Virus record (IMG/VR): IMGVR_UViG_2534681655_000008
Origin: a virus
Taxonomy: Duplodnaviria; Heunggongvirae; Uroviricota; Caudoviricetes
DNA: 25,735 bases
Strand: one strand, 5' to 3'
Shown piece after piece: positions 9,418 to 16,513 of this stretch. Within the stretch, counting starts at the first letter, position 1, and every line of letters begins with the position of its first letter. The position numbers were made by a program, and so were the translations under genes. A model generated the notes under the pieces. It was not told the DNA's origin, made no database searches, and worked only from the letters and a program-made list of their open reading frames with translations.

Positions 9418-9434
9418 TTTTGTGGAGAAAGTTG

Positions 9435-9800
9435 ATGCGTGATATTCAAATGGTTCTTGAACGTTGGGGGGCATGGGTGGCAAATAATCACGAGGATGTC
9501 ACCTGGTCGTCTATTGCTGCAGGATTTAAAGGACTAATCCCTTCAAAAGTAAAATCCCGCCCGCAATGTTGTGACGATGACGCGATGATCATTTGTGGGT
9601 GCATGGCTCGCCTGAAAAAGAACAACAGCGATTTGCACGATTTATTAGTGGATTATTATGTAGGTGGTATGACGTTTATGGCGCTTGCCCGTAAACATGG
9701 GCGTTCTGATTGCTGGGTTGGGCGTTTATTGCAAAAGGCTGAAGGTGTAGTTGATGGCATGTTAATGATGTTAGAAATTGAGCTAGAGATGGATCGTTAG
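9435..9800 (+). CDS. Q: Late-gene antiterminator Q (phage 82 / 21-type)
   Basis: [35 protein letters not shown]...[19 protein letters not shown] matches recalled 82-type Q proteins; GGAG Shine-Dalgarno before ATG 9435. Confidence 0.8.
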
Positions 9801-9883: not shown

Positions 9884-10330
9884 TTAAGGTTTTAATTCAT
9901 CAAGACGTTGTTGGATAGTGTTTTTGCTTGCGTTGTCTGTTATAGCCATTTGTTGTACTTGCCCCATTGCCATTTGAGTTTCCATCCACATATCGGCCCA
10001 CACTTTTGTATCGTTATTAACTTGAGCGATAGTAAATCTGACTTTTGATACCGGGGTTGTTGAATAGGCATTTCCGATTAACATTTGTCCAAAAACAGCA
10101 GAGCCGCCTTCCAGTTCTTTACCACATATAACACTGCTGTTATCCGCGTTGTAAATTATCAACCCTCTACTATTGCAGTAATTCACAAGGGCATCTTTGA
10201 CTTTATCTTTTGTCGTATTTTGATAAACCCCCTCAGGTTTTCCTGATTGAGTTTTCTTTATCAATGGTACGGAAGAAGTACAACCTGAAATGATAGTTGC
10301 GCTAAGTAATAGTACAGTCATTTTATTCAT
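9884..10330 (-). CDS. Lipoprotein of unknown function (148 aa), AT-rich moron on the opposite strand
   Basis: Signal peptide MNKMTVLLLSATIISGC with lipobox-like ISGC; visibly AT-rich relative to flanking phage genes; own promoter-like and Shine-Dalgarno-like sequences upstream. Confidence 0.65.
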   Translation of the reverse strand: MNKMTVLLLSATIISGCTSSVPLIKKTQSGKPEGVYQNTTKDKVKDALVNYCNSRGLIIYNADNSSVICGKELEGGSAVFGQMLIGNAYSTTPVSKVRFTIAQVNNDTKVWADMWMETQMAMGQVQQMAITDNASKNTIQQRLDELKP

Positions 10331-10460
10331 GTTTCTTATCCATTGTTAAGGGTATACCCACACAATTATTTTTATTGGAGATGAATAATCAACCGTTTAC
10401 AATCGTAAAAAATCAAATATGCTGTTAAGAGTGGTTACTTCGCCACACAACTTAAACCCG

Positions 10461-10479
10461 CCGCTGAGCGGTTTTTTTT
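10461..10479 (+). terminator. Weak terminator-like hairpin CCGC-TGA-GCGG followed by T8
   Basis: Short stem and T-run read from sequence; upstream of the tRNA promoter. Confidence 0.35.
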
Positions 10480-10560
10480 GTACCTGTAAACTTGGTGCAG
10501 TACAGTAAACACGCTGGTGGACAAGTGAAAAACAGCATTTAATCAGGCCTTCTGAAGATA

Positions 10561-10589
10561 TTGCAGTATTAATTCTGTAACGTTATTAT
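10561..10589 (+). promoter_or_regulatory. Sigma70-like promoter for the tRNA cluster (candidate late promoter): -35 TTGCAG (10561-10566), 17-bp spacer, -10 TATTAT (10584-10589), GC-rich discriminator
   Basis: Hexamers and spacing read from sequence; GCGCGC discriminator immediately before tRNA +1 is typical of stable-RNA promoters. Confidence 0.45.
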
Positions 10590-10598
10590 TCTGCGCGC

Positions 10599-10674
10599 GG
10601 CCCTTTAGCTCAGTGGTGAGAGCGAGCGACTCATAATCGCCAGGTCGCTGGTTCAAATCCAGCAAGGGCCACCA
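10599..10674 (+). tRNA. tRNA with CAU anticodon, tRNA-Ile2 (lysidine type)-like
   Basis: Full cloverleaf folded by hand (7-bp acceptor, D stem GCTC/GAGC, anticodon stem, T stem GCTGG/CCAGC, encoded CCA); near-identical to recalled E. coli ileX. Confidence 0.8.
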
Positions 10675-10675
10675 A

Positions 10676-10752
10676 CTGCCACTAGCTCATCAGGAAAGAG
10701 CGTCAACCCTTTAAGTTGAGAGTGCGAGGTTCGAGTCCCCGGTGGCGGTCCA
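10676..10752 (+). tRNA. Atypical tRNA-like gene, anticodon loop CCUUUAA (nominal anticodon UUU)
   Basis: Cloverleaf folds (acceptor CTGCCAC/GTGGCGG with one G-U, D stem GCTC/GAGC, anticodon stem TCAAC/GTTGA, T loop TTCGAGT, CCA) but C at position 33, C1-G72 and one T-stem mismatch are unusual. Confidence 0.5.
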
Positions 10753-10754
10753 GT

Positions 10755-10830
<76 letters not shown>

Positions 10831-10833
10831 TGT

Positions 10834-10908
<75 letters not shown>

Positions 10909-10913
10909 GTTAG

Positions 10914-11092
10914 AGTCTTTCAGTCTGCGATGATGGGAAATCCCGGAGTGACTGAAAGACGTTTAAGTTATGAATGATCGCTTTTTTTGCAAAATTGCTG
11001 TGCAGAAATACTAACCTTCGGGCAGGCGATCATTCATAAGCACTCTGCTTTTATTCCGATTAACTGTGGGTGGTTTGTTGGATAGAGTGCTT
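10914..11092 (+). other. Highly structured non-coding segment downstream of the tRNAs (three nested inverted repeats); candidate small RNA or processing element
   Basis: Perfect inverted repeats 10915-10925/10950-10960 (11 bp), 10968-10981/11026-11039 (14 bp), 11038-11046/11084-11092 (9 bp); no plausible ORF. Confidence 0.5.
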
Positions 11093-11114
11093 CCCTTACT
11101 GTATATATCGTTTC

Positions 11115-11140
11115 GCCCGCTTTTGCGGGTTTTTCTTTTC
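11115..11140 (+). terminator. Rho-independent terminator (GCCCGC-TTTT-GCGGGT followed by TTTTCTTTTC) upstream of the lysis genes
   Basis: GC stem plus T-rich tail read from sequence. Confidence 0.6.
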
Positions 11141-11199
11141 AAATCCCTTTCATTTCTCAGTGTAAAACTACGCCATCCGTTATTTGCGGAGGTGAGGCT

Positions 11200-11415
11200 A
11201 TGAAATCCATGGACAAAATTTCAACGGGCATTGCCTACGGCACCTCCGCAGGCAGTGCTGGCTACTGGTTTTTACAGTGGCTTGATCAGGTCAGTCCGTC
11301 ACAGTGGGCTGCGATTGGTGTACTGGGGAGTCTGGTGCTGGGCTTCCTGACTTATCTGACAAATCTGTACTTCAAAATAAGAGAAGATAAGCGTAAGGCT
11401 GCACGGGGAGAGTAA
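11200..11415 (+). CDS. Pinholin / antiholin, phage 21 S21-type, dual start motif MKSM
   Basis: [71 protein letters not shown] closely matches recalled S21 (two TMDs, Met1/Met4 dual start). Confidence 0.85.
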
Positions 11416-11419
11416 TTCA

Positions 11420-11764
11420 ATGACACAAAAATATGAACTGATTGTGAAAGGGATCCGCAATTTTGAGAATAAAGTTACGGTAACTTTAGCATTACGGGAC
11501 AAAAAACGCTTTGACGGTGAAATTTTAGACCTGGACATCTCGCTGGACCGTGTTGAAGGTGCCGCGCTGGAGTTTTATGAGGCAGCAGCCAGAAGGAGCA
11601 TCAGACAGGTCTTCCTGGATGTTGCTGCCGGGTTATGTGAAGGGGATGAGCAGTCACCGGAAAAGCGCCCCATAATTTTAGAGGCGCAGGGTGTGTGGAT
11701 AACCTACAAAGGAAAACTGCCGGGAAGAATTACTGGTTCACTGAAGACTCCGCCGAAATGGTAA
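11420..11764 (+). CDS. DUF1327-like (YdfR-like) protein located between holin and endolysin
   Basis: 114 aa, protein-like; same position as ydfR in the E. coli Qin lysis region (recalled); GGGGAGAG ribosome-binding site. Confidence 0.5.
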   Translation: MTQKYELIVKGIRNFENKVTVTLALRDKKRFDGEILDLDISLDRVEGAALEFYEAAARRSIRQVFLDVAAGLCEGDEQSPEKRPIILEAQGVWITYKGKLPGRITGSLKTPPKW

Positions 11765-12002
11765 TTTCACCAGCATATTTTTCTTCCAGTAATACCGCCA
11801 GCCACTTGAAAGAATTTTGTTGTTGCTGGGACCATTTGGGGTTGAGTGATTCAAGCTGGAGCGATGCCAGTGTTGGTTGCATTTGTTCCTTGGGAATTGA
11901 GAATGCCAGATATGAAAATGCGACAGTAAGGGCATTTACATCATCCCGAAGCTTGGAAATGCAGTCGAGCAACTCCTGTAGAGAAATGGTGCTATTGTCC
12001 AT
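11730..12002 (-). CDS. Candidate small protein (90 aa) encoded antisense within the lysis cassette, convergent with and overlapping the DUF1327 gene 3' end by 35 bp
   Basis: ATG 12002 preceded by GAGAGGA Shine-Dalgarno at 6-nt spacing; non-repetitive protein-like composition; local GC lower than neighbours. Confidence 0.4.
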   Translation of the reverse strand: MDNSTISLQELLDCISKLRDDVNALTVAFSYLAFSIPKEQMQPTLASLQLESLNPKWSQQQQNSFKWLAVLLEEKYAGEITISAESSVNQ

Positions 12003-12107
12003 AAACAATCCTCTCTATTGTATTTAACTATTCCTTGCCTGATTCAACAGGCCGGGACAGATAAACATATCCAGGGTTCAGAAACCGATAAATCCTGATA
12101 AATATCC

Positions 12108-12641
12108 ATGAGCGCAAAAATCAAATACGGCCTGTCAGCTGCTGTTCTGGCGCTGATTGCTGCAGGCGCGTCTGCTCCTCAAATACTTGACCAGTTTCTG
12201 GATGAAAAAGAGGGTAACCACACTACGGCATACCGCGATGGTTCCGGTATATGGACCATCTGTCGTGGTGCCACAATGGTGGATGGTAAGCCCGTCATAC
12301 CGGGAATGAAGCTGTCGAAGGAAAAATGCGACCAGGTTAACGCTATTGAACGTGATAAGGCGCTGGCATGGGTGGAGCGCAATATTAAAGTACCACTGAC
12401 CGAACCACAGAAAGCGGGTATAGCGTCATTTTGTCCCTATAACATTGGCCCCGGTAAGTGTTTCCCGTCGACGTTTTATAAGCGGCTGAATGCCGGTGAT
12501 CGTAAGAGTGCATACGAGGCGATTCGCTGGTGGATAAAAGATGGTGGGCGCGATTGCCGCATACGTTCAAATAACTGCTATGGACAGGTTATTCGTCGTG
12601 ACCAGGAAAGCGCATTAGCCTGTTGGGGGATAGATCAGTGA
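12108..12641 (+). CDS. SAR endolysin (T4-lysozyme-like muramidase with N-terminal signal-anchor-release domain)
   Basis: N-terminal Gly/Ala-rich weakly hydrophobic segment [16 protein letters not shown] followed by the catalytic E...D...T region ([22 protein letters not shown]); pairs with pinholin. Confidence 0.8.
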
Positions 12642-13105
12642 GCAGAGTCGCCGCGATTATTTATGCTCTGGTTATCTGCATCATCGTCTGCCTGTCGTGG
12701 GCGGTCAATCATTGCCGTGATAACGCCATCGCCTACAAAGAACAGCGTGATAAAAAAGTCAGTGAGCTGAAGCAGGCGACCGCCACCATTACTGACATGC
12801 AGCAACGCCAGCGTGCTGCTGATGTACTCGATGCTAAATACACGAAGGAGTTGGCTGATGCGAAAGCTGAAAATGATGCTCTTCGGCGCAAGCTTGATAA
12901 TGGTGGTCGGGTGCTCGTCAAAGGAAAATGCTCTGTGCCATCCTCAGCCGAAACCTCCAGCGCCTCCGGCATGGGCAATGATGCCACCGTCGAACTCTCT
13001 CCAGTTGCTGGACGAAACGTTCTCGGTATCCGGGACGGAATCATCAGAGACCAGACAGCACTGAGAACGCTTCAGGAATATATCAGGACGCAATGCCTTC
13101 GATGA
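12638..13105 (+). CDS. Rz-like inner-membrane spanin (i-spanin)
   Basis: GTG 12638 overlapping endolysin stop; N-terminal [18 protein letters not shown] followed by charged coiled-coil-like region; contains an embedded +1-frame lipoprotein ORF. Confidence 0.7.
12858..13064 (+). CDS. Rz1-like outer-membrane lipoprotein spanin (o-spanin) embedded in the +1 frame of Rz
   Basis: AAGGAG Shine-Dalgarno 9 nt before ATG 12858; signal peptide [19 protein letters not shown] with lipobox, then Pro-rich [11 protein letters not shown]. Confidence 0.7.
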
Positions 13106-13734
13106 TAGCGATAATTTTACTCATCATCCTTCACATCTGGCTCTGTAGACAGGGTGGTGATCACTTCTGGAGTGAATCCAGATTAAACATCTCATTGCTG
13201 ATGCTTGAAGTTGAGCATCTGGCGCGCGGTAAGGGGCTGCGTTGAAATAAGAGCCAGTCATTACAAATACCAGGATTTAGCCTCGTATTCGCGGGGCTTT
13301 TTATTGCCATTACAAAAGCCACTCCCTACAGAGTGGCTTTGATAATGGCTTATACCCTACACGGGATAACTTAACTGATATCCCTTTTAACGGATAAAGG
13401 TATTCAAGCCTGACACATCATGCGCTGTATCGTCGCCGTATTCCCGTATTAACAGAGACCGTAGCCCGACGGGGAACTCCTTCTGCGAGAGTGTGCGGGA
13501 ATAATCAAAAACGATGCACACCGGGTTTTTACCGCGTTTATGGTTCGCGGGTTTGTCCCTCATGCTCGCCAGTCCTGTGCGGGGGTGGAAGAAACAGGAT
13601 ACTCACACAGATTCTTGTGGGCACGATGCTATTCCTTTCTGGATTATCCCGATGCCATTCATGCAAGGCGCTGTATCAGACGTTCGTCATGGCTGTCAGG
13701 CTGACGGGTCCTCCCGGTGGGGTGGCCTGCCACG

Positions 13735-13919: not shown

Positions 13920-14411
13920 ATGGATCATGAGTTGAAAAACCTGGTGCTGAATATTAATCAACTGGCGGCTTTATCTGGTCTGCACCGCCAGACTGTCGTG
14001 GCAAGACTGAAAAACATTCGTCCCGCTGGTGGACATGACAAACTCAAGCTATACCGGTTGACCGATATTCTGACTGAATTTATGGGGTTACCACCGCCGG
14101 TTGCTGAGGGCGAAATGGATCCACATGAACGCAAAGCCTGGTATCAGTCTGAACGTGAGCGTCTTAAGTTCGAACAGGAAACGGCACAACTCATTCCGGC
14201 CAGTGATGTCAGACGGGAGTTTGCCATCTGGGCAAAAGCGGTCGTGCAGGTGCTGGAGACATTACCGGATATTCTGGAACGTGACTGCGGCCTGCAGCCT
14301 GTCGCTGTGAGCCGTGTTCAGTCCATTATTGATGATCTGCGCGATCAGATAGCCCTGCGGGTGACCGAAGCAGGTGCGGATGATGAGGAGGAATTACAGC
14401 AGGAGGAGTAA
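13920..14411 (+). CDS. Terminase small subunit (lambda Nu1-like)
   Basis: GGAGG Shine-Dalgarno; N-terminal HTH-like LNINQLAALSGLHRQTVVARLKN; directly upstream of and overlapping terminase large subunit start. Confidence 0.75.
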   Translation: MDHELKNLVLNINQLAALSGLHRQTVVARLKNIRPAGGHDKLKLYRLTDILTEFMGLPPPVAEGEMDPHERKAWYQSERERLKFEQETAQLIPASDVRREFAIWAKAVVQVLETLPDILERDCGLQPVAVSRVQSIIDDLRDQIALRVTEAGADDEEELQQEE

Positions 14412-16513
14412 TGCTGAATCAGGAAACCGCAAAGGCAGCACGAACCGATTCAGGTTATATCCTTCGCGCACCGAGACGAATGCGGGTTGCTGATGCCGTT
14501 GCTCAGTATATGCGAGTGCCCATGGGGGCCGGGAACTCAGTCCCGTGGGATCCGCTGGTGGCACCGTATGTTCTTGAGCCGATGAACTGCCTGGCCTCGC
14601 GTGAATACGACGCAGTGATATTTGTTGGTCCGGCACGAACCGGCAAGACTATCGGCCTGATTGACGGCTGGGTGATTTACAACGTGATTTGCGATCCTGC
14701 GGATATGCTGATCATTCAGATGACGGAGGAAAAAGCCCGCGAACACTCCAAAAAACGACTTGCCAGAACGTTTCGCGTCAGCCCGGAAGTGGTCAGTCGC
14801 CTGAGTCCGAACAAAAATGACAACAACGTTTATGACAGAACATTCCTTGCTGGCAACTACCTGAAAATCGGCTGGCCGTCAGTCAATATCATGTCCTCAT
14901 CAGATTATAAATGCGTGGCGCTGACGGATTATGACCGTTTTCCGGAAGATATTGATGGCGAGGGGGATGCCTTCTCTCTTGCCTCAAAACGTACCACCAC
15001 ATTTATGTCCAGTGGTATGACGCTGGTGGAGAGTTCCCCCGGCAGGGATGTGAAGGATGTGAAATGGCGACGGACTTCACCGCATGAGGCTCCACCAACC
15101 ACGGGGATACTGTCGCTCTATAACCGTGGCGATCGCCGTCGCTGGTACTGGCCCTGTCCACACTGTGGTGAGTATTTTCAGCCCTGCGGCGATGTGGTTG
15201 CTGGTTTCCGTGATATTGCCGATCCCGTGCTGGCAAGTGAGGCGGCTTATATTCAGTGTCCTTCCTGTTCAGGACGGATTATGCCTGAACAAAAACGTGA
15301 GCTGAACGGACGTGGGGTCTGGTTGCGGGATGGTGAATCCATCAATGCGGATGGCAGTCGTTATGGTGATCCCCGACGCTCACGTATTGCGTCATTCTGG
15401 ATGGAGGGTCCGGCAGCTGCTTACCAGACACTCTCGCAACTCGTTTACAAACTGCTTACTGCAGAACAGGAATACGAGACAACCGGAAGTGAAGAAACAC
15501 TCAAGACGGTTATCAATACCGACTGGGGATTACCTTATCTTCCCCGTGCCAGCATGGAGCAACGAAAAAGTGAACTGCTTGAGCAGCGGGCAGAGCCAGT
15601 TCCTTCCCGCAGTGTGCCGGATGGCGTTAATTTCCTGGTGGCGACAGTTGATGTGCAGGCGGGACGTCATCGCCGTTTTGTGGTTCAGGTAACGGGCTAT
15701 GGCAGCCGTGGCGAACGCTGGATTATTGATCGTTACAACATCACGCAGTCATTGCGCGGTGACAGCGACGGGGAGAGCCAGCGAATTGATCCGGCCAGCT
15801 ATCCGGAAGACTGGGATGTCCTGCTGACGGATGTTTTTCATAAAAGCTGGCCGCTGGCCTCCGATCCTTCTCAACAAATGCGACTGATGGCAATGGCGGT
15901 GGACTCCGGCGGTGAAGACGGGGTCACCGATAATGCCTATAAATTCTGGCGTCGTTGCCGTCGTGATGGCCTTGGTAAACGTATTTACCTGTTTAAGGGC
16001 GACAGCATCCGGCGCGCAAAACTGATCACCCGTACATTCCCTGATAACACCGGACGAACGGGCCGACGGGCGCAGGCCGCAGGTGATGTGCCGCTCTGGC
16101 TTCTTCAGACGGATGCCCTGAAAGACCGGGTGAATAACGCGTTATGGCGTGACTCGCCAGGTCCCGGCTATGTGCATTTCCCTGACTGGCTGGGGAGCTG
16201 GTTTTACGACGAACTGACGTATGAAGAGCGGAGTAGTGACGGGAAATGGAGTAAGCCGGGTCGCGGTGCCAACGAAGCTTTTGACCTGATGGTGTATGCC
16301 GAGGCTCTGGTCATTCTGCATGGATACGAAAAGATCCGCTGGCCGGATGCACCGGAGTGGGCGAGCCGGGAAACCTGGCTGGAGTGTGTCCCGGACAGTA
16401 CCGAACCGTCACCCTCACCGGAACCGGTATCCACGCCTGTTAAAAAACAAAAACGGAAGAAAACAGTAACTGACGATGTTAACCCCTGGCTGACTTCCGG
16501 AGGATGGTTATGA
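14411..16513 (+). CDS. Terminase large subunit (lambda gpA-like)
   Basis: 700 aa; Walker A-like VGPARTGKT; CPHCGEYF...CPSCSG segment parallels lambda gpA CPHCGEEQ... Confidence 0.9.
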   Translation: MLNQETAKAARTDSGYILRAPRRMRVADAVAQYMRVPMGAGNSVPWDPLVAPYVLEPMNCLASREYDAVIFVGPARTGKTIGLIDGWVIYNVICDPADMLIIQMTEEKAREHSKKRLARTFRVSPEVVSRLSPNKNDNNVYDRTFLAGNYLKIGWPSVNIMSSSDYKCVALTDYDRFPEDIDGEGDAFSLASKRTTTFMSSGMTLVESSPGRDVKDVKWRRTSPHEAPPTTGILSLYNRGDRRRWYWPCPHCGEYFQPCGDVVAGFRDIADPVLASEAAYIQCPSCSGRIMPEQKRELNGRGVWLRDGESINADGSRYGDPRRSRIASFWMEGPAAAYQTLSQLVYKLLTAEQEYETTGSEETLKTVINTDWGLPYLPRASMEQRKSELLEQRAEPVPSRSVPDGVNFLVATVDVQAGRHRRFVVQVTGYGSRGERWIIDRYNITQSLRGDSDGESQRIDPASYPEDWDVLLTDVFHKSWPLASDPSQQMRLMAMAVDSGGEDGVTDNAYKFWRRCRRDGLGKRIYLFKGDSIRRAKLITRTFPDNTGRTGRRAQAAGDVPLWLLQTDALKDRVNNALWRDSPGPGYVHFPDWLGSWFYDELTYEERSSDGKWSKPGRGANEAFDLMVYAEALVILHGYEKIRWPDAPEWASRETWLECVPDSTEPSPSPEPVSTPVKKQKRKKTVTDDVNPWLTSGGWL

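Follow-up and report, generated by a model that had tools for sequence, protein, structure and literature searches.

A 90-codon antisense gene on a variable cassette between ydfR and the lysozyme gene of a lambdoid Escherichia prophage

The lysis cassette studied here raises the question of whether a 90-codon ORF located between the holin and endolysin genes, on the strand opposite to them, is a gene, and whether its convergent overlap with the neighboring late gene serves to control lysis. The window is a stretch of 25,735 nt (IMG/VR record IMGVR_UViG_2534681655_000008) from a lambdoid prophage of Escherichia. The initial annotation, made from the sequence letters, described a DUF1327-like gene and the 90-codon ORF as two extra genes in the lysis cassette; it proposed that convergent overlapping transcription could modulate endolysin expression or that the ORF may be an unannotated moron product. 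We found that the antisense gene is real, but it is already annotated and very common; it is an ordinary gene and not a new lysis-control device. The outcome is mostly a clean-up, in that one of two mirror ORFs is identified as the gene and the overlap is best explained as an insertion junction.

The holin gene, the DUF1327 gene, the minus-strand ORF and the lysozyme gene were all located exactly where the initial annotation had placed them. The Q antiterminator gene is found at 9420-9800. Four tandem tRNA genes (Met-CAT, Lys-TTT, Thr-TGT and Gly-TCC; 10599-10908, plus strand) lie between Q and the holin gene, with a terminator-like hairpin at 11115-11130, 3' of the tRNA genes. The terminase genes are at 13920-16513. 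An Rfam scan of 10400-13400 detected the tRNAs only and nothing within 11000-12700. The S gene (11200-11415, plus strand) encodes a 71-aa class II (phage 21 S-type) holin, which matches PF04971 (E = 1.4e-35, 121.5 bits) and phrog_20/9876 ('holin'); the PGAP name in homologues is 'class II holin family protein' or EssD. The translation begins with MKSMDK, a Met1/Met4 dual start. With the PF04971 domain, a length of about 71 aa and the dual start, the protein has the sequence characteristics of a phage 21-type pinholin, and small-hole formation is predicted. The R gene (12108-12641, plus strand) encodes a 177-aa RrrQ-like SAR-type lysozyme (PF00959, E = 2.2e-23). SAR endolysins have a lysozyme domain after an uncleaved, weakly hydrophobic N-terminal segment rich in Gly, Ala and Ser. 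The R product aligns from residue 12 to the phage 21 SAR endolysin R21 (3HDE) and to RrrD (4ZPU), and the Gly/Ala-rich N-terminal segment is thus included in the alignment. By sequence it qualifies as a SAR endolysin, with membrane release predicted. The Rz-type spanin gene (12638-13105, plus strand; PF03245, E = 9e-29) carries the PGAP name 'lysis protein' and has a 4-nt overlap with the end of R in locus L001. The stretch of about 55 nt before the R start codon (12052-12107) is conserved in phages with and without the cassette described below, and it has no obvious Shine-Dalgarno sequence.

The ydfR gene (11420-11764, plus strand), which had been recognized as DUF1327-like, encodes a 114-aa protein with matches to PF07041 (E = 4.2e-42, 142.7 bits versus a cut-off of 25) and to phrog_406 (1-114 of 114), and it is oriented with the late operon. 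Its listing as an extra gene did not hold up: E. coli prophages with a P21-type cassette usually have ydfR between the holin and lysozyme genes, and ydfR is an ordinary late gene in its own right in such cassettes. The E. coli K-12 Qin prophage (essQ-ydfR-rrrQ) has the same order and the same families of holin, DUF1327 protein and lysozyme as the window. For the K-12-lineage strain MC4100, the match covers only 64% of the search query in two pieces, and no hypothetical protein is annotated there between ydfR and rrrQ. Homology of YdfR to sister phages ends at about codon 112. In the YdfR-family loci compared (11420-11764 of the window; L005 533-1084; L006 461-1267; L007 460-1095), the first ~112 residues are shared and are followed by unrelated C-terminal extensions, giving proteins of 114, 116, 183, 211 and 268 aa. 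The divergence point falls at the left joint, where the variable slot recombines.

The minus-strand ORF starts with an ATG at 12002 and ends with a stop codon at 11730. Its length of 90 codons alone is within chance, since the window holds 70 ORFs of at least 90 aa and a 110-codon ORF on the plus strand (11695-12027) spans the same DNA. The case for a gene is made by conservation and not by length. Pairwise NG86 omega values were 0.28 to 0.79 in the minus frame and 0.13 to 0.69 in the plus frame, and they cannot separate the two frames because the mirror ORFs share third-codon (wobble) positions. Pairwise dN/dS was dropped as a means of choosing the frame and was replaced by the distribution of stops, the variability by codon position and cross-genus homology. 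The 11695-12027 ORF, with pairwise dN/dS equal to or lower than that of the real gene, is a concrete case in which dN/dS alone would choose the wrong strand.

The frames were compared in 29 unique sequences, 10 of them with less than 93% nucleotide identity. One or two stops interrupt the plus frame in eight of these 10 sequences, and the minus frame is open in all 10, i.e., in every divergent lineage. When a second IMG/VR set was included (37 unique DNA sequences), minus-frame stops were found in four near-identical tips only. On a parsimony tree with 230 substitution events, plus-frame stops appeared at the neutral rate (8 observed versus 8.9 expected) and minus-frame stops were depleted (5 observed versus 11.1 expected). 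The minus frame on the same tree has a synonymous excess (99 synonymous to 126 non-synonymous changes versus 64 to 155 under neutrality). Outside the overlap, the variable sites are distributed 35/21/53 over minus-frame positions 1/2/3, a normal coding pattern for the minus frame only. The Shine-Dalgarno sequence GAGAGGA is present at 12015-12009 (minus strand), 6 nt before the ATG, and was described as good in the initial annotation; neither the start codon nor the AGG core varies among 11 diverged homologues. That annotation had also suggested examining conservation of the antisense frame and its synonymous versus non-synonymous pattern in homologous prophages, and both results favor the minus frame, which is intact in 174 of the 178 fetched copies (a few contigs are counted twice). 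The antisense frame therefore withstands the refuting condition set there, loss of conservation in homologues. These comparisons indicate that the minus-strand ORF is the gene and the plus-strand ORF its shadow.

It may still be argued that the minus-strand ORF is non-functional, being only the mirror image of the plus-strand ORF or what is left of a decaying gene and is taken up by gene callers. The lower omega values of the plus frame, the weak selection and the stops or frameshifts in some copies would fit such a proposal. In the same pairs of loci, omega of the antisense gene ranges from 0.30 to 0.67 and is put at about 0.4 to 0.5, versus 0.04 to 0.16 for S and R, and selection on the antisense gene is real but weak. 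A tally of member sequences gave about 8% of distinct protein variants as truncated or frameshifted, and the closest complete genome has an internal stop in the gene. The proposal is countered by the broken plus frame and open minus frame in the divergent sequences, by the conserved start codon and Shine-Dalgarno sequence, by a confident AlphaFold2 fold and, most decisively for coding status in our sequence comparisons, by cross-genus protein homologues with E values of 1e-20 to 1e-30. A non-functional ORF is very improbable, and this explanation can be regarded as largely refuted by the alignments and the model. In the protein set, independent 94-aa variants (P0045, P0049, P0051 and P0058) shift to the -1 frame between about codons 48 and 60, in most cases at the WSQ(E/Q)QQ stretch (codons 57-62), which suggests recurrent frameshifting in this part of the gene.

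The 90-aa protein matches the phrog_2411 HMM over its full length (E = 4.3e-59; residues 1-90 aligned with positions 1-90 of the 90-position profile). It is the same protein, with no difference, as the PHROG 2411 member WP_000370546.1, which the Rac prophage of E. coli B REL606 encodes as ECB_RS07100; no function has been assigned to this family. The PGAP label is 'hypothetical protein' in every genome listed, and the gene is also annotated in phage Chlobot. REL606 matches a 286-nt cassette query (11765-12050) at 100% identity, and 100% identical copies of the cassette were found in REL606, in Rosetta2(DE3), which derives from BL21(DE3), and in uropathogenic CFT073. The cassette is found in 1221 of 5426 complete E. 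coli genomes, about a fifth. Since the gene is present in standard laboratory strains, its expression and function would be cheap to test.

Homologues were collected by a profile search of 1.8 billion representative proteins and by a word-indexed search. Proteins of 80 to 97 aa with 26 to 40% sequence identity were found in Serratia, Sodalis, Chania, Yersinia and Atlantibacter, and one with 63% identity in Citrobacter. They share the core ELL..I...L..AFSYLAFS...E..N.......F..LA. When the Serratia, Sodalis, Atlantibacter and Citrobacter homologues were tested against the independent PHROG library, phrog_2411 was the sole match. A second IMG/VR scan seeded with the distant homologues returned the E. 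coli clade only. Searches of the 90-aa protein against Pfam, NCBIfam and PADLOC gave no match, and a sequence-profile search of the PDB gave YibL as the best hit with E = 0.29; no structural or sequence link from the protein to any characterised protein was found. In a literature search, the protein accession was mentioned in no paper and DUF1327 only once. The 90-aa protein belongs to a small Enterobacterales family without a Pfam model.

The protein has a mass of 10.1 kDa and a pI of 4.4, with no TM segment (maximum 19-residue hydropathy 0.88). An AlphaFold2 model built from a 40-sequence alignment has three helices (residues 8-34, 38-52 and 59-76) with a mean pLDDT of 80.8 and a pTM of 0.57. 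The best reading of the product is a predicted acidic, soluble three-helix cytoplasmic protein.

Comparison with sister phages indicates how the gene came to its position. BLAST alignments to four sister phages break at two shared joints, 11755-11759 and 12052-12064. In vB_EcoS-689R5, which has no insert, 19 nt lie between the joints and ydfR stops two codons later. The slot of 2H10 and PhiR5_1 contains a longer YdfR C-terminus and an unrelated 86-aa antisense ORF (phrog_2572), and that of Stx2-86 a different YdfR extension and a 104-aa antisense ORF (phrog_1853). The slot is therefore variably occupied at one position with conserved flanks in the four phages. The insert in the window is a variable low-GC cassette of about 295 bp (about 11757-12051) which carries codons 1-81 of the antisense gene together with the region 5' of it. 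Its composition is unlike that of the surrounding operon (41.8% versus about 50% GC). The antisense ORF has 44.3% GC and the spacer at 12003-12107 has 38.1%, compared with 50.0% for S, 50.6% for R and 51.6% for the whole window; the lower local GC remarked on earlier is thus confirmed for both the ORF and the cassette. The best explanation of these alignments is that a cassette carrying the antisense gene is gained and lost by recombination at a fixed slot that separates ydfR from the endolysin gene in P21-type cassettes. They flag a recombination hotspot with fixed joints inside these lysis cassettes. BLASTP of the slot proteins of Stx2-86 (phrog_1853) and PhiR5_1 (phrog_2572) showed no homology to the 90-aa family, and hhalign, run against the phrog_2572 family only, gave a probability of 0.4%. 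The slot ORFs are not detectably homologous to the 90-aa family by these comparisons. The phrog_2572 ORF of phage 2H10 (LR595862.1; L005 1032-1298, minus strand; 86/88 aa) overlaps the long YdfR gene by 53 bp; it is unannotated in that record and annotated in PhiR5_1 (L007 1043-1303).

The 35-bp overlap of the converging 3' ends is present as first described, at 11730-11764. The left joint falls within the 90-codon ORF. In sister phages, the DNA that supplies the last ~9 codons and the stop of this ORF serves solely as the 3' end of ydfR, and the overlap DNA is common to phages without the cassette. Because of this joint, translation runs about nine codons into ydfR-derived DNA to the first stop, which produces the overlap. 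Residues 81-90 are the sole part of the 90-aa protein that is both unconserved and predicted to be disordered. The pair is unlike a genuine dual-coding antisense pair, in that the shared DNA is limited to 35 bp, is derived from ydfR and codes for the disordered, unconserved tail. The convergent overlap is best explained as a by-product of the insertion junction and not as a designed regulatory feature. In the same locus pairs (L100, L089, L091 and L101), dS is about 0.9 to 1.0 for S, 0.2 to 0.7 for R and 0.1 to 0.26 for the antisense gene. The contrast between adjacent genes points to recombination breakpoints inside the lysis cassette and to an antisense module that has spread comparatively recently.

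In Escherichia, the antisense gene lies beside a P21-type holin gene in every locus with a recovered flank. It is intact in L092 and L093, where ydfR is mostly lost, and it is therefore independent of ydfR. In L091 and L099 it is followed by a different lysis cassette and in L090 it is accompanied by an IS66 element, arrangements that make it independent of the downstream lysozyme as well. In L091 (785-1822) and L099 (5-391), the block of holin gene, ydfR and antisense gene leads into another lysis cassette unrelated to the first (holin_8, holin_3_7 and M15 peptidase). In L090 (1-1927), from a Stx-encoding phage, the IS66 element is inserted immediately upstream of the -35-like site of the antisense gene. 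The gene is also intact in the isolated phage Chlobot and is thus compatible with lysis by a functional phage. Outside Escherichia, the Atlantibacter homologue is antisense between tail genes M and L, the Citrobacter homologue is antisense just upstream of a holin gene, and the Serratia homologue is chromosomal, between dinI and bssS, and is preceded by the dinI terminator. In Serratia marcescens (MJAO01000001.1; L185 4001-4282) a 93-aa homologue lies between dinI and bssS on the same strand. The chromosomal homologues of Serratia and Sodalis (e.g., P0092, between dinI and bssS) have the same family assignment, length and conserved core as the 90-aa protein; they differ in being only ~26 to 35% identical, in lying on the chromosomal backbone rather than in a prophage and in being co-oriented with their neighbors. 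Clusters from many Serratia species, Chania, Gibbsiella, Sodalis and Acerihabitans suggest vertical inheritance of the chromosomal homologue. The occurrence of homologues in a tail operon and on the chromosome of Serratia shows that the family is not restricted to lysis; it appears to be a family of general small cytoplasmic proteins, carried by phages as cargo and usually placed against late transcription. What emerges is an uncharacterised small-protein family of Enterobacterales with both a chromosomal form (by dinI in Serratia) and an antisense moron form in prophage late operons.

The expression signals of the gene are weak. A promoter-like element, TTGAAT-15 nt-TAAATA (12021-12047, minus strand), lies inside the cassette and is a putative promoter. 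It is part of a conserved block, GGTAAATACAAT, and TTGAAT is found in most homologues; the element is below the threshold of the consensus scan. Scans for sigma-70 consensus promoters and intrinsic terminators, here and in three other contexts, gave none above shuffled expectation, and no intrinsic terminator was found downstream of the antisense gene. A LexA box, considered because of the dinI neighborhood, was rejected: the upstream CTGT...ACAG has a spacing of 15 nt, not 8, and the repeat is broken in the window.

Morons in the sense of Juhala and Hendrix have their own promoter and terminator and are expressed from the repressed prophage. With moderate confidence, we consider the antisense gene to be an uncharacterised moron on a low-GC cassette, with presumed transcription of its own and a soluble, putatively partner-binding protein product. 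The gene would be transcribed on its own, against the late operon, from the weak promoter inside the cassette, mainly in the lysogen, and the product may bind a partner of host or phage origin instead of having a role in lysis. The suggestion of an unannotated moron product holds in part: the gene is moron-like in its variability between fixed joints and its lower GC, but it is not unannotated, being labeled a hypothetical protein by PGAP and belonging to PHROG 2411. Points counted against the moron reading are the lack of a consensus promoter or terminator, the weak selection, the broken variants, the missing link to a characterised protein and the three unrelated cassettes that all have a minus-strand ORF at the slot, which could hint at a position-tied role. 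Modulation of endolysin expression by convergent transcription is disfavored because no consensus promoter or terminator was found, homologues occur outside lysis cassettes and the overlap is explained by the junction.

One rival reading is a device at the RNA level, in which terminator-less transcription antisense to ydfR and the holin gene, or colliding with late transcription, would tune or silence the lysis genes, the protein being secondary. Without a minus-strand terminator 3' of the ORF, antisense read-through into ydfR and S is possible, and the ORFs of the three unrelated cassettes are all convergent with ydfR. We consider this reading unlikely in view of the weak promoter-like element, the many P21-type cassettes without any insert and the conservation of the protein sequence between genera and outside lysis cassettes. 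The late operon of lambdoid phages is also transcribed very strongly under Q antitermination, a further point against it. The locus does not resemble a cis-antisense RNA of the lambda oop or P22 sar type either, as it has a conserved ORF with cross-genus homologues and no Rfam match within 11000-12700. In a further reading, the ydfR-endolysin slot would be a dedicated position for at least three unrelated small antisense genes (phrog_2411, 2572 and 1853), whose read-through into ydfR and the holin gene would be a fail-safe against leaky lysis genes in lysogens or whose products would work with YdfR. This would be a new layer of lysis control if true, and we regard it as improbable.

The remaining proposals give the protein a partner in the cassette. 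As a lysis accessory protein, the 90-aa product would regulate the pinholin or the SAR endolysin, e.g., as an antiholin-like inhibitor or a timing factor. The constant P21-type holin neighbor in Escherichia and the Citrobacter homologue, which also abuts a lysis cassette, would agree with such a function. An accessory protein is nevertheless quite doubtful: the gene is on the strand opposite to the late operon and so is not co-expressed with S and R, its product is soluble and acidic (pI 4.4) with no TM segment, homologues occur in a tail operon and on the Serratia chromosome, and most such cassettes lack the gene. An equally slim chance is given to a two-gene module in which the antisense protein is the partner or antidote of the DUF1327 protein, e.g., modulating RNase E or RNA binding. 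K-12 YdfR has been reported to bind the N-terminal domain (catalytic half) of RNase E and to co-purify with RNA (2026 study, PMC13232886), the two genes overlap convergently, and different YdfR C-terminal variants travel with different antisense ORFs. This co-variation is explained by the shared recombination joints. Obligate co-occurrence, as in a toxin-antitoxin-like module, was not seen: most ydfR loci, those of the K-12 lineage included, have no antisense gene, L092 and L093 keep the antisense gene without an intact ydfR, and the distant homologues of Atlantibacter, Serratia and Citrobacter have no DUF1327 neighbor.

Among known systems, lambda bor is the closest textbook analogue of the antisense gene. 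It is likewise small, opposite to the late operon, adjacent to lysis genes and variably present among lambdoid phages; it differs in lying after Rz and not between the holin and endolysin genes. Lambda bor is expressed from the prophage, whereas expression of the antisense gene is presumed. The bor product is an outer-membrane lipoprotein with a known function, and the soluble, acidic 90-aa protein is unrelated to it in sequence. The slot also resembles the P22-type 'ant moron', a hypervariable segment inside the late operon with different gene sets in sister phages (PMC2629481). The ant moron is much larger, has characterised repressors and an antisense RNA and sits ahead of the tailspike gene rather than among the lysis genes. 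Transcription across it has been proposed to influence the late gene that follows (PMC2629481), and it is a precedent for a moron with an incidental effect on a late gene downstream of it.

Two further gene arrangements were observed. In L092 (589-1123), a ParD-like/ParE-like toxin-antitoxin pair is found directly 3' of the lysozyme gene, at the place of the spanin gene in other loci. In the window, a minus-strand ORF of 148 aa (9884-10330) with a match to phrog_3152 (function unassigned) and no Pfam or PADLOC match lies in a stretch of 33 to 40% GC that separates Q from the tRNA genes, and it is probably another antisense moron.
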